A stretch of DNA of 64,000 bases, from positions 22,977 to 86,976 of the forward strand of contig JAVZCK010000009.1 of NCBI GenBank assembly GCA_038874435.1, read 5' to 3'. Position numbers and translations under genes: made by a program. The notes under the pieces were generated by a model. That model had not been told where the DNA came from. It saw only the letters and a program-made list of their open reading frames with translations, and searched no databases. Positions 7,488-52,352 of the stretch are shown here, piece by piece. Source of the stretch: Thermoplasmata archaeon. Lineage in GTDB: Archaea; Thermoplasmatota; Thermoplasmata; Lutacidiplasmatales; SKW197. Each line of letters opens with the position of its first letter. The stretch's first letter is position 1.

Positions 7488-7579
7488 AGTCCTCTTGGGA
7501 GGGTATACTATCGTAGAATATCTATTTTACGGCATTTTTAGAGTGAACCTATATATACCTCACTGCATTTTTCCTGTTG

Positions 7580-28183: not shown

Positions 28184-29016
28184 GCCAGCACCTCTATTTC
28201 CCATGATGCAGATGGAATTATTTCCCATTTCCATGTATTTCCCGATTTATAGTATTTAAGTGCACCTGCCACCCGAATCTCATTCTTTTCCTTTATTTCC
28301 GGCAATGCCCCCGTGAGATTGCCAAGGGATTTTGGTACAAACACATCTATTTTGTAGCCCTGAAAATCCTGGATAACATAATCATAGGCAAAGGAATACT
28401 CTCTGATACTTGTTACATTGCCTCTTACCATCACCCTTGTACCCTCATTTTCCTGTGTGTAAGAAAGAATTTCTTTTATAGTAACTTCCGCAGGTTCTCC
28501 GCGGGTTATCTTTATCTGGTTCACATGATTCACAATCAAATAAAAATCGTTGCTGCGATACTGCAAACTGCCTGAAATCTCCACACGGTCACCAAATGCT
28601 GGGATCAGGGGTTTTCCTCTAGAGTTGAGCGCAAGCATGTCTCGCACTACATCGTCATAGACCTTTATCGGCATAATTCCAGTGCCGTCATCAACTGAGA
28701 AATAAAATGCTTTGCCTGTGGGGTTATCATAGAAAGAAGGGGTATCTGGAACAATACCCTTCACCTTTATCACAGCGTTGTTATAGCCGGGATAGATATC
28801 CTTTACCTTTATTAGCGGTGTTTCAAGCGATGCTGCCCAGGGTATGAGAAGAAGTGTGCCGACTACAGCAATTGCAAGGGCAGAATATTTGAGATAAATT
28901 GTACTCTTCTTTTTGGGAACATCGGCACCGCAGAATGGACATTCTTCAAGTGGACCTACAAATCTCTTGCACTTCGGACAATGAGTGAAGTCAATTCCGT
29001 CTTTACTTCCTTCCAT
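28180..29016 (-). CDS. Zn-ribbon / TM / two OB-fold-like modules protein
   Basis: ORF 28180..29034; ATG 29016 is preceded by GGAGGT. HCPKCK..CPFCG ribbon, TM ALAIAVVGTLLLIPW. Modules VIKVKGIV...FYFSVDDGTGIMPIKVY...GDRVEISGSL and RVMVRGNV... Confidence 0.65.
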   Translation of the reverse strand: MEGSKDGIDFTHCPKCKRFVGPLEECPFCGADVPKKKSTIYLKYSALAIAVVGTLLLIPWAASLETPLIKVKDIYPGYNNAVIKVKGIVPDTPSFYDNPTGKAFYFSVDDGTGIMPIKVYDDVVRDMLALNSRGKPLIPAFGDRVEISGSLQYRSNDFYLIVNHVNQIKITRGEPAEVTIKEILSYTQENEGTRVMVRGNVTSIREYSFAYDYVIQDFQGYKIDVFVPKSLGNLTGALPEIKEKNEIRVAGALKYYKSGNTWKWEIIPSASWEIEVLA

Positions 29017-32000
29017 GTTATACCTCCAGAACATTCAATTTCGTTTAGCGTTATCAAAATAACTGCATCTGTAGAATAATTTCTCACCTGAATTTCATAT
29101 GTGGAATTATAGAGTTTGAAAACTCCTTTTATTTTCACAGCCTGCCCGACTGAGAGCGTTGCTGGAGAAGTGGCATTCTTCTGCACATAAATTGTGAGTT
29201 TCTGACTCGTAGAATTGTCAGTTACATTAAAGAGATAGTAGTTCGCTGTAATCTCTGTAATTACTGCATAATCTAGCGTCACATTCTGGGAGAGATAGAT
29301 TGATGGATTTGAAAGAAGCGCGGAAATTGTTACTGCCTGATATGCAAAAACCGCAATTACCATATCATCTGTGTAGTTTCGTATGTAGATTTCCCAGTAA
29401 CCGCCAGTTGCATACCACTCGAACACACCATAAACATCAACATAATAGCCAGTGTAGATTGATTGAGCTTTAGCATTTTTTGAAACATAGATAGTCAGAT
29501 TAGTAAGGTCGCTAGGAGAGTCCCTTATATTGAAGTTGTATGTGGTTTTTGCCCAGTCAACATAGGCATTCTTTATACACACCTCAGTATTGTTGTACTG
29601 GTTTGGATTTGCAAGCAGAGTGGCAACTGACACCTGGGTGTAGGGAGATTGGCTGCCCACTTCCACACTATCAGTGGTTGCATTTCTGATTACAATCTCC
29701 CAGTAAGCACCGGTGGAATACCATGTAAACCAGCCAGAGACATTTACGCTCATTCCCGCACTTACCGAGGGAATGTTTGCACCGTATTCGCCATACACCG
29801 TTATGTTCGTGCTTGTGCTTGTATCCCTTATTGTGAACCTGTATGATGCATACACATAATCTACAACCATGTTCTCAAGCCGCACAAACGAATTGTTGGC
29901 TGTTGTTGTAGAACCAAGCAGAGTATTGATATCTGAATAGCTCTGGTAATTGTTGTTTCCACCTGTGCCTGTTTTGTCAATCAAGTCAGGTGTTGTGGAC
30001 TTGCCAACATAAATTTCATACGCATTGTTGTAAAGCTCAAATTTGCCCTTGATGTGCAGCAAATCACCATAATACACAACGGAAGGTCTTGTCGCATCAT
30101 ATGTAGCGTACACATTTACCCCTCTTATTCCAGAATTGTCAATAGCATAGAAACTGACATAATCGCTGATATTACTGGCATTCCAATGGACCTTATAAGC
30201 ATAGACCACATTGTTTAACTCCACATTCTTATTCAGGTAATTGTTTGGATTTGCAAGCAATTCATTCACTGTAACCGTTGTGTAGTTCTGGGACTGGCCG
30301 TAAACTTCTACACTATCAGTGGTTGCATTTCTGATTACAATCTCCCAGTAAGCACCGGTGGAATACCATGTAAACCAGCCAGAGACATTTACGCTCATTC
30401 CCGCACTTACCGAGGGAATGTTTGCACCGTATTCGCCATACACCGTTATGTTCGTGCTTGTGCTTGTATCCCTTATTGTGAATCTGTATGATGCATACAC
30501 ATAATCTACAACCATGTTCTCAAGCCGCACAAACGAATTGTTGGCTGTTGTTGTAGAACCAAGCAGAGTATTGATATCTGAATAGCTCTGGTAATTGTTG
30601 TTTCCACCTGTGCCTGTTTTGTCAATCAAGTCAGGTGTTGTGGACTTGCCAACATAAATTTCATACGCATTGTTGTAAAGCTCAAATTTGCCCTTGATGT
30701 GCAGCAAATCACCATAATACACAACGGAAGGTCTTGTCGCATCATATGTAGCGTACACATTTACCCCTCTTATTCCAGAATTGTCAATAGCATAGAAACT
30801 GACATAATCGCTGATATTACTGGCATTCCAATGGACCTTATAAGCATAGACCACATTGTTTAACTCCACATTCTTATTCAGGTAATTGTTTGGATTTGCA
30901 AGCAATTCATTCACTGTGACCGCTGTGTAGTTCTGGGACTGGCCGTAAACTTCTACACTATCAGTGGTTGCATTTCTGATTACAATCTCCCAGTAAGCAC
31001 CGGTGGAATACCAGGTAAACCAGCCAGAGACATTTACGCTCATTCCCGCACTTACCGAGGGAATGTTAGCTCCGTATTCGCCATACACCGTTATGTTCGT
31101 GCTTGTGCTTGTATCCCTTATTGTGAATCTGTATGATGCATACACATAATCTACAACCATGTTCTCAAGCCGCACAAACGAATTGTTGGCTGTTGTTGTA
31201 GAACCAAGCAGTGTATTGATGTCCGAGTAACTCTGGTAATTGTTGCTTCCACCTGTGCCTGTCTTGTCAATCAAGTCAGGTGTTGTGGACTTGCCAACAT
31301 AAATTTCATACGCATTGTTGTAAAGCTCAAATTTGCCCTTGATGTGCAGCAAATCACCATAATACACAACGGAAGGTCTTGTCGCATCGTATGTAGCGTA
31401 CACATTTACCCCTCTTATTCCAGAATTGTCAATAGCATAGAAACTGACATAATCGCTGATATTACTGGCATTCCAATGGACCTTATAAGCATAGACCACA
31501 TTGTTTAACTCCACATTCTTATTCAGGTAATTGTTTGGATTTGCAAGCAATTCATTCACTGTGACCGCTGTGTAGTTCTGGGACTGGCCGTAAACTTCTA
31601 CACTATCAGTGGTTGCATTTCTGATTACAATCTCCCAGTAAGCACCGGTGGAATACCAGGTAAACCAGCCAGAGACATTAACAGTCATTCCCGCACTTAC
31701 CGATGGAATGTTAGCTCCGTATTCGCCATACACCGTTATGTTCGTGCTTGTGCTTGTATCCCTTATTGTGAATCTGTATGATGCATACACATAATCTACA
31801 ACCATGTTCTCAAGCCGCACAAACGAATTGTTGGCTGTTGTTGTAGAACCAAGCAGAGTATTGATGTCCGAGTAACTCTGGTAATTGTTGTTTCCACCTG
31901 TGCCTGTCTTGTCAATCAAGTCAGGTGTTGTGGACTTGCTAACATAAATTTCATACGCATTGTTGTAAAGCTCAAATTTGCCCTTGATGTGCAGCAAATC

Positions 32001-33257
32001 ACCATAATGCACAACGGAAGGTCTTGTCGCATTGTAGGTGCCGAAAACATTCACGCCCCTTATTCCAGTATTGTCAACAACATAGAAACTCACATAATCA
32101 CTGACATTGCTGGCATTCCAGTGCACCTTGTAGGCATAGACCACATTGCTCAATTCCACACTCTTGTTCAGGTAACTGGCAGGGTTTGCGAGTAACTCAT
32201 TCACGGTAACTGAAATGTATGTAACTCCCTGAAGTTCAACCTTATCATCTGTTCCGTTTCTTATTGTGATTTCCCAGACCCCTTCCTTAGAATAGTACTT
32301 AAACCAGCCCTGCACAGAAACATTTGCACCTGCAGAAACACTTGGATTATTGGAACCAAATTCGCAGTAAACAGTAATGTTTTCACTGGTGCCTTCATCT
32401 CGAATTGTGTACTTGTAGGATTTATTGACCCAGTCCACAATTGCATTTTCTATTTTTACAAATGAGTAGTTTGCAGCGGGTGCATTTGCAAGCAGCGAAG
32501 CCACAGTATAGGTCGAATAAGCATTGTTTCCAAAAGTTCCAGTTGTCTCTACGGCGTCTGGTGTGCCAGCACTCACCTTGAGTTCGAATGCCTCCTTGTA
32601 TGTGGTGAATGTGCCTTTGATAACCAGCTTTTCATTGTAACTTATTGAGACAGGCCTTGTAGCATTTGCTTCTGTGTAAATGTTTAACCCTCTTGTGCCA
32701 CCATCATCTACCACATAAAATGTTGTACTGTTTGTAAGATTTGAGGAATAGTAGCCCTTATCCGCAACAATACAACCATTCAAACGCACTTTCTTCTCAA
32801 GGTAATTCTGGCTGTTGGTAAGAAGTTCGTTTACAGTCACATTCTGATATTCATCAAAGACCTCCTGTGTGACACTCAATGTCTTGCTAACGCTGTTCTG
32901 TGCACCCTTCTCGTCTTCTACCGTAAGTGTTACTGTGTAAACACCTGGCTGAGAATAGGCATGCACTGTATTCCGTAAATTTCCTGTCTTGTTGGAACCA
33001 TCCCCAAATTCCCAGAGATGTTTCACTATGGTTTCGTTGCCATCTGGATCATAGGATGTAGAAGTGAATGTTACTGGCTCATTGATTTTTGCACTTGTTT
33101 TGTCCATTGTAAAATTTGCCACTGGCGGACGATTTTCTTCAGGTTTTGGTTTGGACATCATCAAAACAATCGCGACAGCACTTATCAGCACCACAACGAT
33201 AAGCACGGCAGCTATTATCTGTATCTTCTTAAGCGCCAATTCTACCACCGAAGGCAT
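28956..33257 (-). CDS. Giant membrane-anchored surface protein: TM, PKD domain, about 12 OB-fold-like modules including four near-identical 215-aa double-module units
   Basis: ORF track, 1433 aa. TM IIAAVLIVVVLISAVAIVLMM. PKD (VTFTSTSYDPDGN...WEFGDGS...GVYTVTLTVEDEKG). Repeated ~107-aa modules (TVNELLANPNNYLNKNVELNNVVY...FYAIDNSGIRGVNVY...GDLLHIKGKFELYNNAYEIYV). Confidence 0.8.
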   Translation of the reverse strand: MPSVVELALKKIQIIAAVLIVVVLISAVAIVLMMSKPKPEENRPPVANFTMDKTSAKINEPVTFTSTSYDPDGNETIVKHLWEFGDGSNKTGNLRNTVHAYSQPGVYTVTLTVEDEKGAQNSVSKTLSVTQEVFDEYQNVTVNELLTNSQNYLEKKVRLNGCIVADKGYYSSNLTNSTTFYVVDDGGTRGLNIYTEANATRPVSISYNEKLVIKGTFTTYKEAFELKVSAGTPDAVETTGTFGNNAYSTYTVASLLANAPAANYSFVKIENAIVDWVNKSYKYTIRDEGTSENITVYCEFGSNNPSVSAGANVSVQGWFKYYSKEGVWEITIRNGTDDKVELQGVTYISVTVNELLANPASYLNKSVELSNVVYAYKVHWNASNVSDYVSFYVVDNTGIRGVNVFGTYNATRPSVVHYGDLLHIKGKFELYNNAYEIYVSKSTTPDLIDKTGTGGNNNYQSYSDINTLLGSTTTANNSFVRLENMVVDYVYASYRFTIRDTSTSTNITVYGEYGANIPSVSAGMTVNVSGWFTWYSTGAYWEIVIRNATTDSVEVYGQSQNYTAVTVNELLANPNNYLNKNVELNNVVYAYKVHWNASNISDYVSFYAIDNSGIRGVNVYATYDATRPSVVYYGDLLHIKGKFELYNNAYEIYVGKSTTPDLIDKTGTGGSNNYQSYSDINTLLGSTTTANNSFVRLENMVVDYVYASYRFTIRDTSTSTNITVYGEYGANIPSVSAGMSVNVSGWFTWYSTGAYWEIVIRNATTDSVEVYGQSQNYTAVTVNELLANPNNYLNKNVELNNVVYAYKVHWNASNISDYVSFYAIDNSGIRGVNVYATYDATRPSVVYYGDLLHIKGKFELYNNAYEIYVGKSTTPDLIDKTGTGGNNNYQSYSDINTLLGSTTTANNSFVRLENMVVDYVYASYRFTIRDTSTSTNITVYGEYGANIPSVSAGMSVNVSGWFTWYSTGAYWEIVIRNATTDSVEVYGQSQNYTTVTVNELLANPNNYLNKNVELNNVVYAYKVHWNASNISDYVSFYAIDNSGIRGVNVYATYDATRPSVVYYGDLLHIKGKFELYNNAYEIYVGKSTTPDLIDKTGTGGNNNYQSYSDINTLLGSTTTANNSFVRLENMVVDYVYASYRFTIRDTSTSTNITVYGEYGANIPSVSAGMSVNVSGWFTWYSTGAYWEIVIRNATTDSVEVGSQSPYTQVSVATLLANPNQYNNTEVCIKNAYVDWAKTTYNFNIRDSPSDLTNLTIYVSKNAKAQSIYTGYYVDVYGVFEWYATGGYWEIYIRNYTDDMVIAVFAYQAVTISALLSNPSIYLSQNVTLDYAVITEITANYYLFNVTDNSTSQKLTIYVQKNATSPATLSVGQAVKIKGVFKLYNSTYEIQVRNYSTDAVILITLNEIECSGGITWKEVKTELTSLIVRSARDL
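29660..32240 (-). repeat. Tandem coding repeat, four units of 645 bp (215 aa), near-identical over most of the length
   Basis: The anchor string ATCAGTGGTTGCATTTCTGATTACAATCTCCCAG recurs at 29670, 30315, 30960 and 31605, an exact 645-bp period. Only scattered single-base differences are seen between units. The last ~250 bp (31990-32240) are more diverged, and a further diverged unit follows to about 32885. Confidence 0.9.
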
Positions 33258-36470: not shown

Positions 36471-38348
36471 CTACACTTTTCTTTCACAAAACCCTGCAAT
36501 CTGACAATGCTCGCATCTCGGCTTTACTGGCCTGCACACACTCTTTCCGTGCTCTACAAACAGGTAGTTAATCTTTTTCCACAATGGTTTCGGAATCACC
36601 CGCTTCAGTGCATTCTCTGTCTCCTCTGGCGTCTTCGTGCTCACTACACCCATTCTATTCGAGATTCTGTGGACATGGGTATCTACTGGCAGGGCATCCT
36701 TTCCAAACCCAAACACAAGCACGCAGTTCGCTGTCTTCCTTCCTACACCTGGAAGTTTTAATAACTCTTCAATTTTCTCGGGCACCTTTCCGCTATACTT
36801 TTCCTCGATAATTCTTGCCACCTCTACAATTTTCTTAGCCTTCAAATTGTAAAACCCGACTGGTTTGATAATTTCTGCAATCTCCTCTGGATTTGCTCTT
36901 ACAAGTGTCGAGACATCTGGATACCGTGAGAACAGAGCGTCTGCTCTCGGATATGTAACCTCATCTTTCGTGCGTTGTGAAAGAATGGTTGCAATCAGCA
37001 CTCTGAATGGGTCGTCATAATGGCCAGCATTCCCGTAGATACTCTCAAGCGTCTCAACAAGCTTATACCAGTCGATGCCAGCGTTCTCTGATACTCTCTC
37101 TAACTTCCGTTTTTCAAAGAATGCAAGGGCATCGCCAGCAAGATAGACGGAACCGCAAATGCACCAAATCCCAGGGCGAGAAAGGACTGCAGAAAAAGCT
37201 TCTTCACGCTTCATCACAACCGCCTTCCTGAAATATCTTGCCGCAATTTTTTTCACTCGCTCCGCATTCTCAGCTCTCGGAGAATCTGGCTCTGTAATAA
37301 TTATCTCATCTCCAACCCTGGAAAGTGTACGCAAAATCTCCCCTTTCTTCTTGTCTTTGAAAACGCCGAAGACAAAATTAACCTTATCGTAATTCTCTGC
37401 CAGTGATTCTACAAGTGCCTCTGCACTTCTGGGCGTGTGGGCACAATCCACAATAACATCAGGTTTCTCATGCACCTTCTCAAATCTCCCATGCCAGACA
37501 GCAGTTCTCAAACCCTCTCGAATCCACCTCTCCTCCAATCCAAGCACTTTTGCACAGAGCACAGCAAGAGCAGCATTTTCAAACTGGAATCTACCTGGCA
37601 ATGAAATTTCAAGGTCTTCAAGAGACCATGTTCCGTAATTTATTGAAAATTTCCTTTTATCCTTTACTTCAATCATGTCGTTCGTAAGCACAATAAGCTC
37701 AGATTTGTTCTGCTTTGCAATCTCCTCAATAACTTTGAGTGCCTTCCCAGTAGCGCCTGTCACGACAGGCACACCCTCCTTTATTATCCCTGCTTTCTCT
37801 CTTGCGATTTTTTCAATGCTCCTTCCTAGTACGTTTGTATGCTCATGCTCAACATTCGTGATGACACAGCATTCTGGCGAGACTACATTTGTTGCATCCA
37901 GGCGTCCTCCGAGACCAACCTCTACAACTGCATAATCCACTTCTACATCTGCAAAATACTTGAATGCCATTGCTGTGGTAAACTCAAAGAATGTTACTTG
38001 CTTTGTTCTGTCTACTGCTATCATCCCATCAACAATATCCTTAATTTTATTATAATACTCCACCACTTTCTCCTTCGGTATTTTCTCTCCGTTCACCACT
38101 ATCCTTTCATTGAACTCAATTAGATGCGGTGAGGTATAAAGACCTGTTTTATACCCTGCAGATTTTAAAATCGAATGAAGGAAGGCACACACAGACCCCT
38201 TTCCTTTACTGCCTGTGACATGCACCACTTTGAAGTGTGTTTCGGGATGGCCTAGATGTTCAAGCAATCCTCTGATGTTATCAAGGTTAAGCTTAGTTCC
38301 AAATCTGGTTAAGGCATAGAGGTGCTGGAGTATTTCCTCATAACTCAT
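36471..38348 (-). CDS. Fusion protein: FolC-like Mur-ligase (folylpolyglutamate/dihydrofolate synthase family) + endonuclease III (Nth, HhH-GPD with 4Fe-4S)
   Basis: ORF track, 625 aa, one continuous frame. N-terminal ~415 aa carries [10 protein letters not shown] and a Mur-ligase layout. C-terminal ~200 aa carries [32 protein letters not shown] and CxxxxxxCxxCxxxxxC ([17 protein letters not shown]). Confidence 0.8.
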
Positions 38349-38352
38349 TCTT

Positions 38353-39231
38353 TCACTTTTTTATTTCAAGCAACAGTGTTCTCAGTGACTCTATTGTTGT
38401 TTTGAGTTCTCCCACGCTCTTCTCAATCGCCTCTACCCTCCTCACAATCTCAATCTGGCTCTTGTTTAAGCTTTCAATTCTGTTATGGGTCTCAATTGAG
38501 GTTACATCAATATGTTTGTTCACGCTTTTCAGCATTGTGTCAATCTTTTCCTCAAATCCCTTCAACTCCTTCATCTCTGCTTCTAGTTTTTCGATCAAAG
38601 GCTTAAGTTCCGTCGCAACATTTGAGCTTTCGCCAGCAGGAACAGAAGAACTACCCGCTCCAGACCTCTCCAGTGCCTCTGAAATTTCGTTCAGCTTTCG
38701 CATGTTCTCGCTTATCAGCAACCTCACCTGGGTGGCAACTTTGAATGTATCTGCTACGTCTCTTGAAAGTGCCTGCGTTAAGTTTTTCGTCTCGACGGCT
38801 TGAGAATTTATTGCTTCCGCAGTCCTTCCTATGCTTTCATTGATCGTTTTTCCAAGACCTTCATTCACCCTCTTGAAACTCTCCTCAATCATTGCAACAA
38901 GTTTCTCGTAGGTTTTTGCCTCAACTTCACTTATTTCTGCCTTAATTTTGGGTATGGAATTATCTATTGCCTTATTTACATCCTCAATTTTAGCACTCAA
39001 GTCCTTGTAAACCGTATTGGTTGTTGTAAGTAAATAGTTCATTCCAGTTTCCGTATATTCCTGCTGAGCTTCCAGTGCCTTCAGAAGAAGGTGCAAAATC
39101 CAGTGTTCTCTCCCTTTTGTGTGTGACAATATACCTTTGTCAATTCTCTCTCTTGCCTCCTTATCGTTTACCAGGTCAGTAATCGCACGCACCACTTCGG
39201 TTCTTATTGTGCTTTTCTTTCCTTCTGCCAT
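38353..39231 (-). CDS. Coiled-coil protein of unknown function
   Basis: ORF track, 292 aa, heptad-rich and Glu/Lys/Ile-rich, with no TM helix and no recognisable catalytic motif. Wedged between the IleRS-like and FolC-Nth genes with 12-nt and 4-nt gaps. Confidence 0.6.
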   Translation of the reverse strand: MAEGKKSTIRTEVVRAITDLVNDKEARERIDKGILSHTKGREHWILHLLLKALEAQQEYTETGMNYLLTTTNTVYKDLSAKIEDVNKAIDNSIPKIKAEISEVEAKTYEKLVAMIEESFKRVNEGLGKTINESIGRTAEAINSQAVETKNLTQALSRDVADTFKVATQVRLLISENMRKLNEISEALERSGAGSSSVPAGESSNVATELKPLIEKLEAEMKELKGFEEKIDTMLKSVNKHIDVTSIETHNRIESLNKSQIEIVRRVEAIEKSVGELKTTIESLRTLLLEIKK

Positions 39232-39243
39232 AACTATTCACCA

Positions 39244-42200
39244 TCAGATTACATCGTCCACTTCCCGCTCAATCAGATTGAATTGGGATGCCTCCATTGT
39301 TGCAGGATTTATTGGAATAAGAAGCATTGCATTATTAATTGCAATCTGGTCCTTTAGTGATTGAATTAGACGAAGCACTGTGATAAAATTATTGTTAGTA
39401 ATCAGATACTCAATTCCATCCAGGAAGATAACTGAATCCCTGTTCTTTGATAGGAACTGTTCCAGTATCAAACTTAACTTTTCCAGGTCTTTGGGTCGCA
39501 CTGCATTCTCCTTTCCCACATTTGAGAGCCAGATTATTGGCACATCCTCCAGTTCGTATTTCTGCTTTATCTTCTCAGGATAGTCCCTGGTGACACAGAT
39601 TACCTTCGGGTTTGCCTTTGCCATGTATTCTTTAAGGTATTTGTAGGCCCTATCCGCCCGCTCACATTTGATTATGTAGGAATACCCCTGTCTGAACTCC
39701 ACCGGTTTTTCCTCCATCTCTCCACCACCGATTTTCTCTGGTGTTTTATCACCTTCGTTAGCCACAGCTTGCTCAACCCTAGGTCCACTAACAAGTGGCT
39801 CAGATTGTGTCTGGACTGGCTTGACCCCGAATTCTGCTAGATATCCTAGAATTCGCTTTGCAAGATTTTCTCCAATGGTGGGCATCCTCGCCAGGTCTTC
39901 AATCCTTGCACTTGCAAGCATCTCAACCGTTCTATAACCTGCATCATAAAGGGCTCTTGCTTTTGAGGGGCCAAGCCCTGGAATTGTGTACTTTGTCATC
40001 ATCAACCGCACAAAATTTTCTCGTTCCTTCTCACTTGGCTCTGGTACTTCTGGTTGTAAGGGAGCTTGTTTTTCTGGGATTGGAGTTTCAACTGCCTCTT
40101 TGTGTAATTCCTTCTTAACAGGAACTACCTTCGGCTCTTCTGCTGCCTCCACCTTCCCCTCGGCAACTTCAGGCCTCTGCGTGGAAAAATAACTGACAAT
40201 TTTTTTTGCAAATGTCTTTCCAATTCCTGGAATCTTCTGAAGCTCTTCAGCATTTGCCGTCCTAAGTTTTTCTATTGATACATAGCCAGCATTGAATAGG
40301 GCTTTTCCGCGTTCTGGAGTCATTCCTGGGATTCCCATGAATTTTTCAAGGGTTGACTTGAAGTAGAGTGGAGTGATTCCAAGAACTAATGATGTCTCCC
40401 TGAGGTTCCACTCTACTACATACTCTCCAGGTATCTCTCCAGAAACAAATTCTATGTTTCTCGCATTAACATTGGCCTTTATATTTTCTACAGAGGAAAG
40501 AAGAATATTCTGCAATTGTTCATCTGTAGCAATGTAAAGGTCAATTATATCGTCGATATCCAGGCGCATCTCCTTTCGCATCTCCATGACTATGCGGATA
40601 AAGTTTCTTATGTTGGACTCCAGAATGTCTTCCTCGGTCAGATTCAGGTCTATATACAAATTTCCGTTTGTGATGGGTGCCGACTGCACATTATCTGGCA
40701 GTTTTGATTTGAAGGATACCATGTTGGGAAGAATTCTAACCAATTGCCCTTCAATACCCAGCATGTACTCTCCGCGCTCAATTCCTTCCTTAATTTTCTT
40801 CGCTGATTGAAGTTTCAGCAAATGTCCAATTTTGCTTGCCCATTGTCTGTAAACAAGACCTATCGCAGAGGGATTCGGGACCACTTCTAGGATGAGTTCA
40901 TCCCAGTCCTTACCAAGAGGTAAAATCTCAATTTTTTTTGCATTCACAAACTGAGCAATAATTTTTTCGAAGTCCTTAACACTTTCAAATGTCTCTTCCT
41001 TCTCGGATTTCACAATCACTCTTCTAAGGGGGACTCGTAAAGGAATTCCTACCTTTGATCTTATCTTGTTAATCTCTTTAATAACTTCCATTGCAATTCT
41101 CATCTTTCTCTCGAGTTTATCATCTATGATAAGTTTATTTGCTGTAGGATAGTGCTCAAAGAAAACACTTTCATGCTTGCCATCGTAGGTGAGATAAATC
41201 TCCTCAGCAACATGCGGCGCAAGCGGTGCCAGCATTTTTGCGATGCTGCTCAATGTCTCTACCAAGGCATAGTAGGCAGCCATTTTTTCATGAGATAGCC
41301 CTTTTGTTCTTACCCTCTGTCTTATGGCCTTAATATAGATTCTAGATACCTCTTCTTTGATAAACCTCTCTATATGTCTCCATACTTTGTGATAGGCCAT
41401 TTTATCCATTGCGTCGCTTGCTAGAAGTTTCAGATTTTCAAGGCGTGAGAGAAGCCATTTATCCTCCAGTAATAAATGCTCGCGCACATTTTCGTATGTG
41501 AGGTCTCTGAGCTCGACCTTGTCGTTTCTCATGTATATGTTGGCGAAAACTGCAACATTCCATAATATAGAAAGAGAACGATATATTCCCTTTATTCGTT
41601 CCTCATTGTAAACTAAATCCTGCCATGGTTCTTTGGAGAGAAGATACACCCTTAAAGCATCATAGCCATATCTCCCAGCAAGATTTCTAGGTGTGTCCAC
41701 ATTTGGAGACACGTTGGTAACCAGCTGGTGCTTCTCATCCACTACATGTCCATGAGCAAAAACACTTTGGTAGGGCAGCTTGTCAAAGGCAATATAGCTG
41801 AGCACCATCTGTGAGAAGAACCAATTTTTCGTTTGTGTGTGTGCTTCAACAATAATGTCGACAGGCCAAATGCTGGCAAATTCCTCCTTTTTGGATGGAT
41901 AGCCAATAGAAGCCCATGAAGCTACACCTGAATCTATATACACATCAACTGTATCCTCCACGCGACGCATGTCCTTTCCGCACTTTTCACAAGTAAACAC
42001 AACATTGTTGATCCAAGGAATATGAAGGTACTGGCCTTCCAAAAACCCTTTTCCAGCTTTCAACTCTTGAATTGAAGACACGACCTTTGTGTTACCGCAA
42101 GAGCATTTCCAGATTGGCATAGGAATGCCCCAGTACCTTTGCCTTGAAACACACCAGTCTCCAAGGTTTGAAAGGAAATCATACATCCTACCCGAGCCAA

Positions 42201-43521
42201 CCCATGGGGGAATCCATTTCACTCCCTCAGAGGCCTCCAGCAACCTATCCCGCATTCCTTTTGTCCTGATAAACCATTGCTTAGTCGGAAGATGTAGAAG
42301 TTGAGAGCCACACCGCCAGCAATGCCCAACCCTTATCACTTCCTCCGCTTCTGCGTAGAGTACCTCTCCATCTCTCAAGTCCCTTATGATCAAAGAGTTC
42401 GCATCGTCATACTTAAATCTTGCATATTTGTTTATTATTTTAGAGGTAAAGGTACCATCAATCTCAAACGGATTGAATACTGGTAGGTTGTATTCTTGTC
42501 CTATTTCAAACTCTACAGTACCCATACCCGGTGAAATGAAGAAAGCACCTGTATGAACAGGCTGAACTCTTTTGCTCGTGACAATCTTGTGCACCCATTC
42601 CCCTTTTACCTCCTGATGGTAGGGTACCTCTATCAGTAACGGAGGAATGTACTCAGTGCCTTTCAAGCTCTCTCCCTTAATCGTTTCTATAATCTCGGTA
42701 CTCACATGATTTCTAAGAGCGAGAATTTTTTCTGCATTCTGTTTACACGTGATTAGGATCTGCTCCTCTTCCCCTGTTTTCACCTTCACCTTTACATACT
42801 CTTCATCTGGATTTACTGCAATCGCAAGAGCACCTGTAACTATCCATGGATAAGGTGTCCATACAAGTATAAACTCGTCAGTGCGTCCCTTCAAAGGCAC
42901 GATCACATAAACTCCATGAACCTTTGCCTCCTTGTATTCAACCTCATTGTCTGAAATCGCGGTTTCACATCTTGGGCAGACAGGAACTACTCTTTCCAGC
43001 TCAACAAGGAAGCCACGCTCATAAGCCCTCGCAATGCTCCACCACACAGAGGAAATGTACTCATCTGAAAGAGTGATGTAAGCTCGGTCCCAATCAAACC
43101 AGATGCCTAGCATTTTGTATTCTTCAATCATTTTGTTCTTATTTTCAAATGTAAAACTCCTGCATTTTTCAATGAATTTGTCAAGTCCATACCTTTCAAT
43201 TTCTCTCTTCCCTTTTAGCATCAAGCTCTGCTCGAGCATGATTTCGATTGAAACGCCATGCATATCAAAGCCAGGTATCGCTATCACGTTTTTTCCATTC
43301 ATCAAATTATATCTGATCAATACGTCCTTCAGTACCTTATTTCTAGCATGCCCCATGTGCACAATTCCTGTTGCAAAAGGGGGACCATCCAGAATGAAAA
43401 ACTTTTCGGATTTCTCCCTTGCTTTTTTCACCTTCTGATAAGCTTTCTGTTCCTCCCAGTACTTGAATATCTTTGTTTCCAATGCCTGAAGATTGAACTC
43501 CTTCTGAATATCCCTAATCAT
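39244..43521 (-). CDS. ileS: Isoleucyl-tRNA synthetase-like protein with C-terminal 2x(HhH)2 + DUF835 extension and degenerate KMSKS/editing motifs
   Basis: ORF track, 1425 aa. PPFATGIVHMGHARNKVLKD (HIGH region), WCVSRQRYWGIPMPIW and Zn knuckles CPRCE, CWRCG, CEKCG support IleRS. LVTNV sits where KMSKS is expected. About 375 extra C-terminal residues follow. Confidence 0.8.
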   Translation of the reverse strand: MIRDIQKEFNLQALETKIFKYWEEQKAYQKVKKAREKSEKFFILDGPPFATGIVHMGHARNKVLKDVLIRYNLMNGKNVIAIPGFDMHGVSIEIMLEQSLMLKGKREIERYGLDKFIEKCRSFTFENKNKMIEEYKMLGIWFDWDRAYITLSDEYISSVWWSIARAYERGFLVELERVVPVCPRCETAISDNEVEYKEAKVHGVYVIVPLKGRTDEFILVWTPYPWIVTGALAIAVNPDEEYVKVKVKTGEEEQILITCKQNAEKILALRNHVSTEIIETIKGESLKGTEYIPPLLIEVPYHQEVKGEWVHKIVTSKRVQPVHTGAFFISPGMGTVEFEIGQEYNLPVFNPFEIDGTFTSKIINKYARFKYDDANSLIIRDLRDGEVLYAEAEEVIRVGHCWRCGSQLLHLPTKQWFIRTKGMRDRLLEASEGVKWIPPWVGSGRMYDFLSNLGDWCVSRQRYWGIPMPIWKCSCGNTKVVSSIQELKAGKGFLEGQYLHIPWINNVVFTCEKCGKDMRRVEDTVDVYIDSGVASWASIGYPSKKEEFASIWPVDIIVEAHTQTKNWFFSQMVLSYIAFDKLPYQSVFAHGHVVDEKHQLVTNVSPNVDTPRNLAGRYGYDALRVYLLSKEPWQDLVYNEERIKGIYRSLSILWNVAVFANIYMRNDKVELRDLTYENVREHLLLEDKWLLSRLENLKLLASDAMDKMAYHKVWRHIERFIKEEVSRIYIKAIRQRVRTKGLSHEKMAAYYALVETLSSIAKMLAPLAPHVAEEIYLTYDGKHESVFFEHYPTANKLIIDDKLERKMRIAMEVIKEINKIRSKVGIPLRVPLRRVIVKSEKEETFESVKDFEKIIAQFVNAKKIEILPLGKDWDELILEVVPNPSAIGLVYRQWASKIGHLLKLQSAKKIKEGIERGEYMLGIEGQLVRILPNMVSFKSKLPDNVQSAPITNGNLYIDLNLTEEDILESNIRNFIRIVMEMRKEMRLDIDDIIDLYIATDEQLQNILLSSVENIKANVNARNIEFVSGEIPGEYVVEWNLRETSLVLGITPLYFKSTLEKFMGIPGMTPERGKALFNAGYVSIEKLRTANAEELQKIPGIGKTFAKKIVSYFSTQRPEVAEGKVEAAEEPKVVPVKKELHKEAVETPIPEKQAPLQPEVPEPSEKERENFVRLMMTKYTIPGLGPSKARALYDAGYRTVEMLASARIEDLARMPTIGENLAKRILGYLAEFGVKPVQTQSEPLVSGPRVEQAVANEGDKTPEKIGGGEMEEKPVEFRQGYSYIIKCERADRAYKYLKEYMAKANPKVICVTRDYPEKIKQKYELEDVPIIWLSNVGKENAVRPKDLEKLSLILEQFLSKNRDSVIFLDGIEYLITNNNFITVLRLIQSLKDQIAINNAMLLIPINPATMEASQFNLIEREVDDVI

Positions 43522-43595: not shown

Positions 43596-43745
43596 TTACT
43601 GTTTCGCACCCCTTTCCTTTGATTTAGGTCTTAATCCTGAGTAGCCACACTTTCTGCATCTTGTAGCTCTTAAAGGATTTCTTGCACTGCATCGCATGCA
43701 AATTTTCTTATTCAGTAAGCGGTCAACTGCCTCTGGGAACGCCAT
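43596..43745 (-). CDS. rpl40e: 50S ribosomal protein L40e (eL40)
   Basis: Below the ORF-track size cutoff; translated by hand as [49 protein letters not shown] (49 aa). This is the classic eL40 CxxC...CxxC zinc ribbon with the [10 protein letters not shown] motif. Confidence 0.88.
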
Positions 43746-44357: not shown

Positions 44358-45695
44358 ATGCTCCAACCATTGAGGGGTTTCAGAGATTTCTATCCGGAAA
44401 CAATGGCTGCAAGAAGAAAGATGTTTGAGGCAATGATATCGGCAGTTAGAAAATACGGGTTTAGGGAGATAGACACACCAAGTGTGGAGGGGCTGGAGCT
44501 ATTCAAACTCAAGAGCGGTCCAGGCATTGTTGAGGAAACATTTTCATTCGTTGATAAAGGTGGTAGAGAGGTCACTCTTATCCCTGAGCTTACGCCCTCT
44601 GTGGCAAGAATGATTTCTGCTAGACGCAAGGTACTTACGTTTCCGCAAAAGTGGTATTCTCTAGGAAAAATGTGGAGATATGAAGAACCGCAATCAGGAA
44701 GATTACGAGAATTTTACCAGTTGAATGTAGACATCTTCGGCGCAGATAACATTGAGTCAGATGCGGAGATAATTGCAGTGGGAATAGAAATAATGAAGGC
44801 CTTGGGAATTGAGAACGAGATTGTAGTTAAAATTTCGCATCGGCAGCTTGTGCAAGGGATTTTAGAATGTATGGGTGTCCAGAATGTGGAAGAGGCAATG
44901 CATGTGATTGACAAGAGAGATAAGATGCATACTGAGGAGTTCAGACAGGAGCTCAGCAGGATGGGAGTTCGAGATGAGCAAATGGATAAGCTGTTGGAGA
45001 TTCTTTCATTTAAAAAGGAGTTTACAAAAGAAACTATTAGTGAAGTGAAAGCGGCAATAGAAAATCTCCTTCCATTCAGTTCAAAGAGGGTGGATGTGCA
45101 GGAAATGACACCTGGCTTCTCAATGGCTCTTCATGCTGCAGAAAAACTTGAGAAATTATCTAGCTATCTGAAACTCTATGAGGCAGATAAATACTGTATG
45201 CTCGACCTTGGCCTTGTGCGTGGGCTGAGTTATTACACAGGTGTGGTGTTTGAATGTTTTGACAAGCAAGGTAGTTTCCGTGCGATTTTTGGAGGCGGTA
45301 GATACGATAATTTAATTGAGCTATTTGGGGATATGAAGATTCCAGCAGTTGGTTTTGCTATAGGGGATGCTGTACTGGAACAGGTACTGAGGAAAGCAGG
45401 TAAATGGTATCCGGAGAAACTTGAAACCGACTTTTTTGTCGCATTCACAAACCAGGATTTCTATCCTCTTGCAGTGAGAATTGCGAAGATGCTCAGAAAC
45501 CAGGGATTTTCAGTTGAGATAGACCTACTTAAAAGAAATCTCGAGAAACAATTCAAATATGCAGATAGGGTGGGTGCTAGAAGAGTAATAATTATAGGGG
45601 AGGAGGAATTGAAAGAGGGGAAGGTGAGGGTTAAAAACATGGAGACAGGGGAGCAGGAGAACATTGAGTTGAAAAACCTCCTGCCTGAGGAGTAA
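44358..45695 (+). CDS. hisS: Histidyl-tRNA synthetase
   Basis: ORF track, 445 aa. [34 protein letters not shown] and GGGRYD class II HisRS motifs. Confidence 0.92.
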
Positions 45696-47882: not shown

Positions 47883-47970
47883 GCAGGGGTAGTCAAGCTT
47901 GGTCAAAGGCGCCAGAATGAGGGTCTGGTCCCATAGGGGTCCGTGAGTTCAAATCTCACCCCCTGCACCA
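47883..47970 (+). tRNA. tRNA-Leu (anticodon GAG) with encoded 3' CCA
   Basis: Hand fold. Acceptor GCAGGGG/CCCCTGC, anticodon stem CCAGA/TCTGG with loop ATGAGGG, long variable arm TCCCATAGGGGTC, T arm GTGAG-TTCAAAT-CTCAC, discriminator A, then CCA at 47968..47970. Confidence 0.88.
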
Positions 47971-49364: not shown

Positions 49365-52352
49365 ATGGCGGAGTTTCCTCTCGTGGATAGGCACAAAGAG
49401 CTTACGTTTCTGACAGAGCGGCTGAAGAGGGTAGAAGATGGCGATGGCTGTGCAGTTCTTTTGAAAGGAGATACAGGGACTGGTAAAACTAGATTATGCC
49501 AGGAACTTCTTATGCTTGCATATGACAAGGGTTTCAGTACATTATCTGGTTGGTGCATATCACAGAGCGTCCAGCCCCTAATTGCTTTTGAAGATGCACT
49601 AAAAGGAGTTGGTCTTCAGCATCTAATTGAGGAAGGAAAGCCTCCGAAAATTGAAGGTATTTATTTTTTTAACGCAAATAATTTGATCTGGAGCATTGAG
49701 CGGGAGCGTATCAAGGCAGAGGAAGTGAGCTATGAGAAAGTTAGGAGTTTTGTTTTCAGGGAGGCGGAGAAGCCAGTTGATGGTGAAGAAGGGTCTGTTA
49801 GAATAACAAGATATGGAAATTATGAGGCAATACACATGAACCACGGAGATCTAAACCTGTGTGTTATCACATATGGAAGGGTGAGGGAGACCCTCGTTCG
49901 TGACCTTCAAGGAATTTTAATAAGGAATCAGGTAGGGGAGCATGAAGCAATTAAATCTGAATGTGGAAACTTGATGAGGTCAGGAAAATATGATGGAATT
50001 GACTGGGCTCAAGGCATACATGACGCAAAAAAGCTGAATCTATTTGAGAATCTGTTACTCGGGCTAAAGAGATATGCGGAAAAACAGCCAGTCGTATTGT
50101 TTATAGATGACCTTCATCTTGCAGATACAGCTACAATTGAACTTTTCCTTTACATTGCTAGAAACATCAAAAAAGCAAAAATATTGCTCTTGGGAACTCT
50201 AAATACTGAGAGCGGTGTAATCCCTGAGAACTGGAAAGAGATTCTCCATCAGATTGAGTTGGAGCAAATTATAGAGACACTTGTTTTGAAGAATCTTTCT
50301 CCAGAAGAAGTAGGAGAGATTTTTTGCATGGTGACAGGCATAAAGTTATCGTATGAGCTTGAGCGTCTAATTTACGAAGTTACGGGTGGGAACCCATTGT
50401 TTGTCGCAGAATATCTTCAGCATCTCAAGCGTAGTTATACTTTCAGAACTGAGCAGGACATGATAAAAATTCTGAAATCTGGGAAACTCCCAGAAACCCT
50501 TTCTAACCTCGTGCTTACAAAATTTGAGAAGCTGCCAAAAATTGAACGGGATGTTTGCATCACCATTTCAGTTCTGAGGTTTGCAGAACCACAGCTTTTG
50601 TCAAGTATCTGTGGCATTCCAGCAAAAGATGTTTCTCATGTGCTTTGTAATCTCCAGGAGCGAGGGATTCTAGCAATGCAGGGCACCTTCTGGAAGTTTG
50701 TAAACTCAACGTTTTCAGAGGCAATCTATACAATGCTCAGTAACACGAGAAGGGTTTACCTCCATCGGAAAGCCCTAGCAAATTTGTTAGCTGACTACAG
50801 CACTGATGAAAGATTTTTTGGAGAAATTCTGAGGCACGGCTTGATTTTGAATAACAAAGAAGTGGTTCAGGAGTATGGAATGAAAGCTGGTGATGCAGCA
50901 ATGTCAAGGTACTCCGTAAATGAGGCCATAGAAAATTACATGGCGGCGATAAATGCGGCGGATGAAGAAAAAAGAAAGAAGTTTCTCCCAAAAGTGCTGA
51001 AAGCTCTTGAAATCGTGTCAAGACATGATGAATGCATAGGACTGATAGATAAAGCATTGAAGAGTGCCAAAGAGCCAAAAGAGAGAGCCGAGTTGTTTCG
51101 CAGAAAGGCGGAGGTTTTGATAAAGAAGGGAGAGTACACCGAGGGAATGGCATGTGCGAGGGAAGCGTTGCAAATCCTTCAGGCCGGAAAAGAACAATGT
51201 GAGGATGAAGACCTAGCAAAAGTTTATAGTGTGATTGGCGTTCTTTACGAGAGAAAGGGGGGATATACAGACGCAATGCGATGGGAAGGCAAAGCTCTTC
51301 AGATTCTTGAAAAACTGGAGGGCACGGAAAGCACCCTCTCTTTTGTTTACAATAGAATGGGCGTAGTGTGTTGGCATATAGGTGACTACAAAACAAGTGA
51401 ACTCTACTATAAAAAAAGCTTGGAAATTGCTCAGAAGAAAAATGATCTAGTAGCTATATCAAGATGTTATAACAATCTGGGCGTGCTTTACCGAAACAAA
51501 GGTGAGTTGGGGAGAGCCCTTGAATTTTATCTCAAAAGTTTGGAAATTGACGAAAAAATTGGAGATAGATGGGGAATTGCAGGCACATGCAATAACATTG
51601 GAGTAGTGTATCATGAGATGGGAAATATTCCCGAATCATTGGAATACTACAATCGTGCCCTTGAAATAGAGAGAGAGGTGGGAGACCTCTGGGGCATTGC
51701 CCTCCTCAATAATAATCTTGGCATTGGATACTTTGAAATGGGAATTTTGGACAAATCTTTAGAGCATTACAAAACTGCATTGACCATTTATGAGAGAGTT
51801 GGTGATTCCAAAGGCACTGCCATTGTTTACAACAACATTGGTGATGTCTACAGCATGTATGGCGACTATGAAACTGCTAGAGAATACTACAACAAAAGTG
51901 TGGAGATGTGCAGAAGAATTGGGGCGATAGATTATCTATTTAACCCAATTCATGGCCTTGTAGAAATCTCACTTTCTCCTTCTGCTATGCCGTATTGTGA
52001 AGAAAAGCTGAGGGAGTTGCAGGAGATTGCTGAAAAGTTATCAGATAGGAAAAAAATTACAATGGTAAAAGCGATGAAAGCCAGAGTGGAGACAGTGAAG
52101 GGCAATATACATGAGGCAAAAAGGTTGTTTCAAGATGCAGAGAGAAATTTTGAGGAGTGTGGAGAACTCATAGACCTGGCAAAGGTGCGGTATTACTATG
52201 GGATTTTTGAAATAAAAGTTGGAGAAAAAGAGGAAGCAAGAAAATTGCTTCGGGCTGCTGAAAAAATGTTCTCAAAATTTAATATGGCTGGCTGGAGGCA
52301 ACGCGCAGAGTTAGCTTTGGGAGCGATCGATGGTGAATCCCTCAGGGATTAG
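49365..52352 (+). CDS. STAND-class P-loop NTPase (AAA_16-like) with TPR array, paralog 2 (carries a ~110-aa insert between Walker A and B)
   Basis: ORF track, 995 aa. LVDRHKELTFL, Walker A GDTGTGKT, Walker B VLFIDDLHLADTAT. Canonical TPR units (YNNLGVLYRNKGELGRALEFYLKSLEI, etc.). Confidence 0.8.
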   Translation: MAEFPLVDRHKELTFLTERLKRVEDGDGCAVLLKGDTGTGKTRLCQELLMLAYDKGFSTLSGWCISQSVQPLIAFEDALKGVGLQHLIEEGKPPKIEGIYFFNANNLIWSIERERIKAEEVSYEKVRSFVFREAEKPVDGEEGSVRITRYGNYEAIHMNHGDLNLCVITYGRVRETLVRDLQGILIRNQVGEHEAIKSECGNLMRSGKYDGIDWAQGIHDAKKLNLFENLLLGLKRYAEKQPVVLFIDDLHLADTATIELFLYIARNIKKAKILLLGTLNTESGVIPENWKEILHQIELEQIIETLVLKNLSPEEVGEIFCMVTGIKLSYELERLIYEVTGGNPLFVAEYLQHLKRSYTFRTEQDMIKILKSGKLPETLSNLVLTKFEKLPKIERDVCITISVLRFAEPQLLSSICGIPAKDVSHVLCNLQERGILAMQGTFWKFVNSTFSEAIYTMLSNTRRVYLHRKALANLLADYSTDERFFGEILRHGLILNNKEVVQEYGMKAGDAAMSRYSVNEAIENYMAAINAADEEKRKKFLPKVLKALEIVSRHDECIGLIDKALKSAKEPKERAELFRRKAEVLIKKGEYTEGMACAREALQILQAGKEQCEDEDLAKVYSVIGVLYERKGGYTDAMRWEGKALQILEKLEGTESTLSFVYNRMGVVCWHIGDYKTSELYYKKSLEIAQKKNDLVAISRCYNNLGVLYRNKGELGRALEFYLKSLEIDEKIGDRWGIAGTCNNIGVVYHEMGNIPESLEYYNRALEIEREVGDLWGIALLNNNLGIGYFEMGILDKSLEHYKTALTIYERVGDSKGTAIVYNNIGDVYSMYGDYETAREYYNKSVEMCRRIGAIDYLFNPIHGLVEISLSPSAMPYCEEKLRELQEIAEKLSDRKKITMVKAMKARVETVKGNIHEAKRLFQDAERNFEECGELIDLAKVRYYYGIFEIKVGEKEEARKLLRAAEKMFSKFNMAGWRQRAELALGAIDGESLRD

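Follow-up and report, generated by a model that had tools for sequence, protein, structure and literature searches.

What could an isoleucyl-tRNA synthetase (IleRS) gain from a tail of two helix-hairpin-helix (HhH) modules and a DUF835 domain, and is the protein that carries such a tail still a synthetase? The question is raised by a gene of a Thermoplasmata archaeon (Lutacidiplasmatales, SKW197) located in a 64,000-nucleotide stretch of contig JAVZCK010000009.1 (GenBank assembly GCA_038874435.1, forward-strand positions 22,977 to 86,976). This whole stretch is referred to as the window, and its numbering is used unless another locus is named. In the list of open reading frames (ORFs) the gene is one uninterrupted frame of 1425 residues (39244..43521, minus strand). 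The fusion is real, conserved and specific to IleRS: the synthetase-like body is followed by a module that combines RadA-like HhH motifs with a KaiC-type fold devoid of a P-loop, and the version in the window is catalytically non-canonical. We favour, with a probability of about one half, a reading in which a scaffold that binds tRNA(Ile) is coupled to a signalling output domain of archaeal type; the protein would then be a specialised paralogue, or an enzyme that has been reprogrammed, and not the standard proofreading form of IleRS.

A continuous fusion and its modular tail

The initial annotation had proposed that the frame of the synthetase body runs without a stop codon into two (HhH)2 modules and a KaiC-derived DUF835 domain encoded at 39244..40370 (residues ~1051-1425). 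Pfam places its HhH and DUF835 matches in this segment as claimed, and Pfam, NCBIfam, AlphaFold and Foldseek agree on the overall composition. The domains are arranged as follows (ARD, anticodon-recognition domain, a naming of the IleRS C-terminal domains taken from a 2026 preprint on IleRS C-terminal architectures; pLDDT, predicted local distance difference test):

39244..43521, minus strand: whole gene, IleRS-like body plus HhH-HhH-DUF835 tail, 1425 residues, stop codon counted in, single ORF
41614..43473, minus strand: class I catalytic (Rossmann/HUP) domain with the CP1/editing domain inserted, residues 17-636 (PF00133, tRNA-synt_1, 349 bits)
43348..43359, minus strand: HIGH motif, residues 55-58, reading HMGH (motif tables)
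42829..42861, minus strand: Thr-rich editing-site motif, residues 221-231, reading WTPYPWIVTGA against the canonical WTTTPWTLPxN
42508..42552, minus strand: His/Asp editing-site motif, residues 324-338, reading TGAFFISPGMGTVEF against the canonical TGxVHxAPGHGxxDF
41710..41724, minus strand: KMSKS-equivalent loop, residues 600-604, reading LVTNV (alignment to 8c9d; motif tables)
41020..41463, minus strand: anticodon-binding domain (ARD1, Anticodon_1), residues 687-834 (PF08264, 106 bits)
40405..40965, minus strand: C-terminal anticodon-recognition domains ARD2/ARD3 (Pfam DUF5915), residues 853-1039 (PF19302, 45 bits)
40177..40362, minus strand: (HhH)2 module 1 and the preceding helix, residues 1054-1115 (HHH_5/HHH_2/HHH matches)
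40033..40176, minus strand: Pro/Glu-rich disordered linker 1, residues 1116-1163 (pLDDT below 50)
39832..40032, minus strand: (HhH)2 module 2 and its N-terminal helix, residues 1164-1230 (HHH_5 at 1179-1225; pLDDT above 90)
39682..39831, minus strand: disordered linker 2, residues 1231-1280 (pLDDT below 50)
39247..39681, minus strand: DUF835 domain, residues 1281-1425 (PF05763, 124 bits)

With 710 bits against a cutoff of 621.4, the protein is recognised as an IleRS by the NCBIfam ileS equivalog TIGR00392, and ordinary archaeal IleRS are 40-44 % identical to its body. In the tail, PF05763 matches residues 1294-1420 with 124.3 bits (gathering score 33.1), covering profile positions 9-135 of 136, and HHH_5 (PF14520) matches two stretches, ~1063-1115 and ~1179-1225, with 89 bits; HHH_2, HHH and HHH_3 match as well. 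The paired hairpins read PGMT/PGIG in the first module and PGLG/PTIG in the second, making each of them an (HhH)2 unit.

Could the junction be an artefact, either because a stop codon has been lost or because ileS was joined chimerically to an HhH-DUF835 gene downstream of it? The identical 1425-residue product is found on at least six contigs from independent samples, including GCA_038872195.1, SRR30574052 and SRR27170999. A scan of the GTDB species-representative genomes with a tail-alignment pattern and tblastn identified 175 species genomes with a stretch that encodes a relative of the tail. The best 80 loci were kept, and all of them belong to metagenome-assembled genomes (MAGs) of Thermoplasmata/Methanomassiliicoccales. 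The tail and a full IleRS body lie in one continuous ORF of 1335-1538 residues at 62 of these loci, and at eight the gene is cut by the contig end. The other ten, in which frameshifts or a stop split the gene into two or more ORFs, could speak for separate genes, the more so as three are broken near the junction. However, the positions of the interruptions are scattered, six of the ten come from long-read 'contig_' assemblies, and several of the genes carry more than one frameshift; moreover, purifying selection acts across the junction between synthetase and tail. Neither a stop or frameshift between the two parts nor a pair of separate genes fits the locus, since the same frame recurs in independent assemblies and the orthologous loci mostly hold a single gene. 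A lost stop codon is therefore ruled out, and the chance that the fusion is an assembly product is negligible.

The tail was modelled with AlphaFold2 as residues 1041-1425 (pLDDT 82.6) and, together with the preceding domains, as residues 851-1425 (pLDDT 85.1). The models contain three folded modules joined by the two linkers that had been predicted from the sequence, both disordered (~1118-1159 and ~1238-1270) and the first Pro/Glu-rich. The HhH helical bundles are modelled at pLDDT above 90 and the ARD2/ARD3 region at ~81-96 (block means; 84-96 from residue 871). The junction from ARD3 to HhH-1 stays at 92 or more throughout and contains no flexible linker. Judging from their family, the HhH modules would bind nucleic acid, either DNA or tRNA. 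Their earlier designation as DNA-binding is an assumption, and tRNA appears at least as likely a ligand because HhH-1 is rigidly attached to an anticodon-recognition domain in the models.

The DUF835 domain (1281-1425) adopts a five-stranded alpha/beta RecA/KaiC-type fold without a P-loop. Taken by itself in the Foldseek comparison, it matches FlaH/ArlH (4yds), PH0250 (2ekd) and KaiC-CI (4tlb, 5jwr) at a root-mean-square deviation (rmsd) of 3.8-4.9 Å and probability 1.00, the FlaH match having an rmsd of 3.9 Å over 164 columns. Inspection of residues 1281-1425 reveals no Walker A motif (GxxxxGK[ST]), and just three residues (ERA) connect strand 1 (YIIKC) to helix 1. The domain is therefore not classed as a KaiC/RecA ATPase despite its core fold, in agreement with PMC5847659, in which DUF835 is listed among the output domains of response regulators in archaea, as an inactivated KaiC. 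The relationship to KaiC is visible by fold comparison only and not by sequence-only comparison; phmmer of the domain against solved structures returned nothing below E = 0.5. The window encodes a second DUF835 domain at the C-terminus of a membrane protein (7577..9391), which the initial annotation had aligned 'residue for residue' with the tail. The homology is real (tblastn E = 4e-16 over 159 residues; the membrane protein itself matches PF05763 with 76 bits), but at 27.7 % identity this wording was too strong.

Foldseek searches against the PDB also return RAD51/RadA chains as the best matches, over 270-310 columns that cover both HhH and core (E 1.7e-6 to 2e-4). The tail shares with RadA/Rad51 the order of (HhH)2, linker and RecA-fold core, HHH_5 is of the type found at the N-terminus of RadA, and residues 1180-1225 are also matched by TIGR02236 (recomb_radA). 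Might the tail then behave like a RadA/Rad51 paralogue that binds DNA or RadA filaments, so that the protein moonlights in recombination/repair or in transcriptional control at DNA? A gene for Hjc resolvase lies ~4.5 kb away in the window and ~4 kb away in a related locus (L004), and a fusion of FolC with an HhH-GPD glycosylase is encoded two genes downstream. However, the RAD51 matches have an rmsd of ~19 Å because the domains are differently oriented, and thus reflect domain order and not a shared rigid structure. In addition, the core is trimmed to ~145 residues, against ~230 in RadA/Rad51, and is without Walker A, hence no recombinase ATPase; no FxxA polymerisation motif is evident in linker 2, and the HhH-core module sits behind a synthetase. 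Across the family, recombination genes are not regular neighbours, and the specific fusion of the tail to bodies of the IleRS type speaks for a connection with tRNA or translation. A role at DNA is thus very unlikely.

Catalytic motifs in the window clade and its relatives

A more striking point, overlooked by the initial annotation, lies in the body: judging from the sequence, the KMSKS and editing motifs of the window copy are altered. The motifs were compared across 24 fused proteins and 26 unfused IleRS (25 archaeal, one bacterial), and 46 sequences (45 archaeal, one bacterial), Methanomassiliicoccales-type fusions included, served as the canonical reference. The window clade comprises the window protein and its closest species-level relatives, at loci L007 (body 84 % identical) and L008 (73 %), with P0241 as a metagenomic representative. 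Canonical archaeal IleRS, fused or not, share six motifs, and the window, L007 and L008 proteins deviate from them at all six sites (canonical form, then window clade):

HxGT: HMGH / HIGH
WTTTPWTLPxN: WTPYPWIVTGA
TGxVHxAPGHGxxDF: TGAFFISPGMGTVEF
DVWFD: DVYID / DVSID
DQTRGWF: TQTKNWF / GQTKNWF / NHTKGWF
xM(S/H)KS: xVTNx

The first of these changes is not a loss. HIGH is retained as HMGH, and its fourth position is His, whereas the 45 archaeal IleRS have Thr (44) or Gln (1) and never His. The possibility that HxGT in the relatives marks degeneracy was rejected, as 25 of the 26 unfused IleRS carry it; being common to all unfused archaeal IleRS compared, HxGT is the archaeal norm and not a defect. 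The KMSKS loop is a different matter. In the alignment to the structure of Priestia IleRS2 (8c9d), LVTNV lies opposite KMSKS, with both lysines lost, and none of the M, K, S and G of the loop, near-invariant in the 46 canonical sequences, remains. Several residues that belong to the adenylate/amino-acid pocket have been exchanged as well. The motifs that have taken over are in turn conserved among clade members, an example being xVTNxSP, which is common to the three species-level sequences; P0241 has the close variant PITNVSPG.

In the canonical sequences, 158 columns reach a conservation of 95 % or more, and the share of them that the window protein retains differs strongly between domains:

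Rossmann fold: window keeps 84 %, canonical minimum 83 %
Editing domain: window keeps 58 %, canonical minimum 94 %
Anticodon-binding domain: window keeps 94 %, canonical minimum 78 %

The CP1 editing site is thus no longer of the canonical type, and the anticodon domains are preserved, with 86 % of the invariant positions kept in the C-terminal anticodon-recognition domains (PF19302) as well. Is the body then decaying as a pseudogene? Synonymous sites are saturated between the window, L007 and L008 (proportion of synonymous differences, pS, ~0.77), while the proportion of nonsynonymous differences (pN) between window and L007 stands at 0.07 for the regions of catalysis and editing and at 0.05-0.08 for the HhH modules, which rules out such decay. 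With pN/pS far below 1, the protein has lost KMSKS and the editing motifs and kept HIGH together with the Rossmann invariants. Linker 1 is the fastest-evolving segment (pN 0.29-0.50) and DUF835 the most conserved part (pN 0.012): between species in which the identity of the synthetase body is 84 % and 73 %, that of DUF835 is still 98 % and 91 %.

The fusion is found well beyond this genome, in a large family that public databases carry under several names, among them 'DUF835 domain-containing protein', 'isoleucyl-tRNA synthetase' and 'class I tRNA ligase family protein'. In an exhaustive search of 1.84 billion protein representatives, the tail gave 2859 matches at E <= 1e-3, of which 83 reached E <= 1e-30. 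A word-indexed protein search never returned the window protein, its close relatives or the full-length fusions over 1100 residues, and alone it would wrongly suggest that the tail occurs mostly in proteins of 655 residues or fewer. Pfam scans of the 14 top tail-bearing representatives of at least 900 residues showed an IleRS-type body (tRNA-synt_1, Anticodon_1, DUF5915) followed by DUF835 in 13 of them, the exception being a CarboxypepD_reg/PKD protein (P0366); none of the top representatives scanned carries the tail on another type of synthetase, and in P0305 DUF835 is the sole domain shown. The region between body and DUF835 varies, from one or two HhH modules, with a TPR or a Zn-ribbon added, to nothing (P0341), and protein lengths reach 2329 residues; many relatives have a Zn-ribbon at the position of linker 2, where the window protein has none. 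The DUF835 of the tail itself forms a tightly conserved subfamily with the invariant motifs WLSN, RPKDLEKL and GxEYLITNNNF, distinct from, and much more conserved than, the DUF835 of signalling proteins.

By their motifs, most members of the family are canonical archaeal IleRS, for example in Methanomassiliicoccaceae, and these presumably serve as the housekeeping enzyme. Among the 24 tail-bearing clusters with similarity to the IleRS body, seven are canonical at every visible motif (two of them truncated at the N-terminus, so that the first three sites are not visible), six are intermediate, the window clade among them, and ten have lost HIGH, KMSKS and the editing motifs entirely; in the last one (P0265) no motif region could be aligned. 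The fully decayed proteins (P0246, P0249, P0252-P0255, P0261, P0262, P0269, P0288) keep Anticodon_1, DUF5915 and DUF835. So does a GTDB locus outside the 24 (L039), which scores 49 bits for tRNA-synt_1 and 113 bits for DUF835 and has kept HhH too. P0246 is found in identical form on 15 contigs from several MAGs, where PGAP calls it just 'class I tRNA ligase family protein'. The TIGR00392 scores form a graded series from a canonical fusion (L044, 949 bits), ~240 bits above the window protein, through P0241 (695) to P0246 (307) and L039 (255). On these sequences, the fully decayed relatives cannot be working IleRS, and the feature conserved throughout the family is therefore the tRNA-recognition half plus the tail, not catalysis. 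The body has been altered or has decayed while the tRNA-recognition domains and the tail were conserved, which argues that the tail has a selected function independent of charging. In neighbour-joining trees the window clade and L039 lie on long basal branches, probably by long-branch attraction, which makes the trees uninformative about the number or timing of duplications.

Parts of the fusion are also encountered separately. On a 944-kb contig of GCA_041320395.1 (L004, 6001..7836, plus strand), a gene of 611 residues begins midway through the anticodon-binding domain and runs on into DUF5915-HhH-HhH-DUF835, 70 % identical to residues ~767-1372 of full-length fusions. An unrelated EamA gene lies directly upstream on the other strand and no N-terminal part of an IleRS is present within 6 kb, so the gene is either a truncated stand-alone copy or a rearrangement. 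At three other loci, a coiled-coil protein of more than 858 residues is encoded immediately upstream of a canonical fused IleRS (L024 3..2579, L034 1..2613, L073 3..2582, plus strand), and its last ~240 residues are homologous to window residues ~800-1040, forming a detached paralogue of the anticodon-recognition domain.

A possible scaffold, sole synthetase or sensor

How might a scaffold of this kind work? The IleRS-like body would still recognise tRNA(Ile), perhaps also binding ATP through the retained HIGH motif, and the HhH modules would add sequence-independent contacts to the nucleic-acid backbone; HhH-1, rigid on ARD3, would be placed to touch the tRNA, with HhH-2 on a tether. DUF835 would act as a protein-protein output, and the status of tRNA(Ile) or isoleucine could in this way be coupled to KaiC-type ATPases or to other DUF835 proteins. 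Candidate partners of both kinds are encoded in the window, namely a KaiC-family ATPase (61942-62631) and the membrane DUF835 protein (7577-9391). In the same reading, the genome would encode a second, canonical IleRS.

Several results weigh against this proposal. There is no second IleRS in the 64-kb window or in the flanks of L007 and L008, and the candidate canonical IleRS P0125, P0123, P0146, P0121 and P0388 all mapped to other, unrelated assemblies; as none has been found for the genome, the window protein could still be its sole IleRS. It passes the IleRS equivalog cutoff, keeps HIGH with a more canonical fourth His, retains 84 % of the near-invariant Rossmann positions and evolves no faster than the neighbouring housekeeping genes. 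Moreover, class I signature motifs can be altered naturally at no cost to function, as in IleRS2, which has a rearranged HIGH and is fully active (PMC10485003). For the tail, hhalign against the KaiC of the window gave a probability of 0.5 %, with no sequence-level homology detected, and no partner gene is conserved beside the IleRS-like gene across the family in the neighbourhoods compared.

It is possible, therefore, that the protein is the sole and still-active IleRS of the organism, with a rewired active site and no editing, and with a tail that adds affinity for tRNA (HhH) or tethers the enzyme to a multi-synthetase or ribosome-associated assembly (DUF835 oligomerisation), much as the C-terminal extension of eukaryotic cytosolic IleRS would offer an analogue. 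Editing-deficient synthetases are known in some organisms. His in place of Thr in HxGH, next to a newly gained Arg, might make up for the loss of the KMSKS lysine. Strong purifying selection over the whole body, the conservation of the replacement motifs inside the clade, the position of the gene just downstream of that for ribosomal protein L40e and near HisRS, and the rigid attachment of HhH-1 to the anticodon-recognition domain would all suit such an enzyme. However, the whole KMSKS loop is replaced, together with the Trp of DVWFD and the Asp of DQxRGWF, all at positions at least 95 % invariant in canonical IleRS, and the clade itself varies there (Y/S at the Trp, T/G/N at the Asp and Q/H at the following Gln). 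In addition, many members devoid of any catalytic motif keep the tail, whose selected function is therefore not tied to catalysis. We consider a sole, still-active IleRS the less likely reading on these grounds, and favour the scaffold.

A broader alternative extends to the canonical members of the family as well. The fusion may be an archaeal counterpart of GCN2-type sensing, in which the body would read tRNA(Ile) charging or isoleucine, and DUF835 and HhH would relay this to a KaiC network or to DNA. Canonical members would then both charge and sense, and the window clade and the decayed relatives would be sensors that gave up standard catalysis. Aminoacyl-tRNA synthetase (aaRS)-derived pseudo-enzymes acting as sensors or regulators are known, examples being the HisRS-like domain of GCN2 and HisZ. 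They resemble the window protein in having a synthetase-derived body with altered catalytic motifs that is under selection and joined to a regulatory module or working with one, and the decayed L039 and P0246 proteins fit closely. They differ in that the body here is a class I IleRS, the output an inactivated KaiC/RecA fold and not a kinase, and the window copy only partly degenerate, its tRNA sensing being putative. Overall, a sensing function of the whole family is unlikely, and for the window protein the tRNA(Ile)-binding scaffold remains the preferred reading.

Neighbourhood and known systems

The genes that bear on the protein and on its possible partners are the following:

38353..39231, minus strand: coiled-coil protein of 292 residues, 12 nt downstream of the IleRS-like gene; no Pfam family above threshold
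43596..43745, minus strand: ribosomal protein L40e, on the strand of the IleRS-like gene and ~75 nt upstream of it
44358..45695, plus strand: HisRS, divergently upstream of the IleRS-like gene
61942..62631, minus strand: KaiC-family ATPase, stand-alone and single-domain (PF06745, 187 bits), a candidate partner for DUF835 proteins
7577..9391, plus strand: membrane protein with a Zn-ribbon and a C-terminal DUF835
9429..12005, plus strand: AAA_16+TPR STAND-like ATPase, directly downstream of the membrane protein

L40e and HisRS give the locus a translation-related context. The 292-residue coiled-coil gene follows the IleRS-like gene in L001-L003, L007 (84 % identity) and L008 (67 %) and not in other lineages, and is a possible operon partner. 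In L008 an orthologue of the membrane DUF835 protein (72 % identical; 720..2558, minus strand) is the immediate divergent neighbour of the IleRS-like gene, an adjacency which may mean that these two DUF835 proteins are linked. The KaiC gene is flanked by a 1228-residue protein without a Pfam match (58187..61873, minus strand) and by an overlapping ORF of 182 residues (62619..63167, minus strand). The ATPase at 9429..12005 is one of three large AAA_16 ATPase plus TPR (MalT/STAND-like) proteins in the 64 kb, the others lying at 49365..52352 (plus strand) and 52738..55266 (minus strand), and a TPR-only protein is found at 56520..58238. A single tRNA gene, tRNA-Leu(GAG), is located at 47883..47970.

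Other neighbours are of interest in themselves. The 625-residue protein at 36471..38348 (minus strand) joins a FolC/Mur-ligase-type folylpolyglutamate synthase (Mur_ligase_M, Mur_ligase_C) to an endonuclease-III-like HhH-GPD glycosylase with a C-terminal Cys cluster, an unusual pairing of folate metabolism and base-excision repair that is conserved in L007 (82 % identity) and L008 (69 %). Further away (27152..33257, minus strand), a 1433-residue protein contains PKD, CcmE-like and OB-fold (tRNA_anti-codon) segments; after it come two OB-fold proteins of smaller size (360 and 284 residues), and the three form an OB-fold gene cluster. The loci of the decayed P0246 (L090, also L091 and L092) have an archaeosine tRNA-guanine transglycosylase (TGT+PUA; L090 5486..7375, plus strand) on one side and, 13 nt downstream of P0246 (L090 12153..12401, plus strand), a stand-alone AsnC/Lrp-type ligand-binding domain of 82 residues. 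Genes for an acyl-CoA dehydrogenase, a small DUF3198 protein and an aminotransferase come next, giving these loci a tRNA/amino-acid flavour. A promoter/terminator scan, made with a bacterial consensus on this archaeal host, gave the same counts as shuffled sequence.

How does the protein compare with what is known? It has the body of an archaeal-type IleRS (IleRS2/IleRS-A; TIGR00392; 8c9d, 1ile), that is, a HUP domain with HIGH, CP1, Anticodon_1 and ARD2/ARD3. Unlike these enzymes, it has LVTNV in place of KMSKS, other sequences at the Thr-rich, His and Asp motifs of the editing site, neither the pocket Trp nor the Asp of DQxRGWF, and an added tail of 375 residues that ordinary IleRS lack. The closest architecture is that of the canonical IleRS-HhH-(Zn ribbon)-DUF835 fusions of Methanomassiliicoccales and related groups (L044, L047, L073), with the same domain order and DUF835 subfamily; these keep all catalytic and editing motifs, and most have a Zn-ribbon before DUF835, in contrast to the window protein. 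Appended domains are also present in eukaryotic cytosolic IleRS with a C-terminal extension (9w01_B, 1263 residues) and in NF040702 (ileS_w_GNAT), but they are unrelated and include no HhH or KaiC-like folds. With response regulators of the REC-DUF835 type and membrane DUF835 proteins, of which that at 7577-9391 is an example, the fusion shares the presumed C-terminal output (PMC5847659), whereas the input here is a 1040-residue synthetase body plus HhH in place of REC, PAS or transmembrane sensors. A literature search found no paper on an IleRS, or on any other aaRS, fused to HhH or DUF835/KaiC, in line with what the initial annotation had stated, and the 2026 preprint, which classifies the C-terminal architectures of ~96,000 IleRS, makes no mention of HhH, DUF835, KaiC or an extension. 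Domains appended to synthetases, and pseudo-enzymes that descend from synthetases, are already known in kind, but the present combination, the range of lineages that have it and the recurrent decay of catalysis in proteins that keep the tail appear to be undescribed.

There is a practical consequence for annotation, as proteins of this type score above the IleRS equivalog cutoff and would receive the name 'isoleucine--tRNA ligase' although they have neither KMSKS nor the editing site. The biological interest is wider. Eukaryotes tie translation to signalling through synthetases with appended domains and through pseudo-enzymes derived from synthetases, and to our knowledge comparable links are essentially undescribed in archaea. 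Here, an archaeal group at the level of an order has its IleRS fused to a domain otherwise seen as the output of response regulators, and several lineages, this one included, have altered or discarded catalysis yet kept the tRNA-recognition domains and the tail almost perfectly. If the GCN2-type alternative were true, the family would provide a molecular entry point to the detection of amino-acid starvation in archaea that have neither RelA/(p)ppGpp nor GCN2. The fusion is in any case a concrete and genetically tractable candidate, for example in cultured Methanomassiliicoccus, for the coupling of tRNA or amino-acid status to archaeal signalling.

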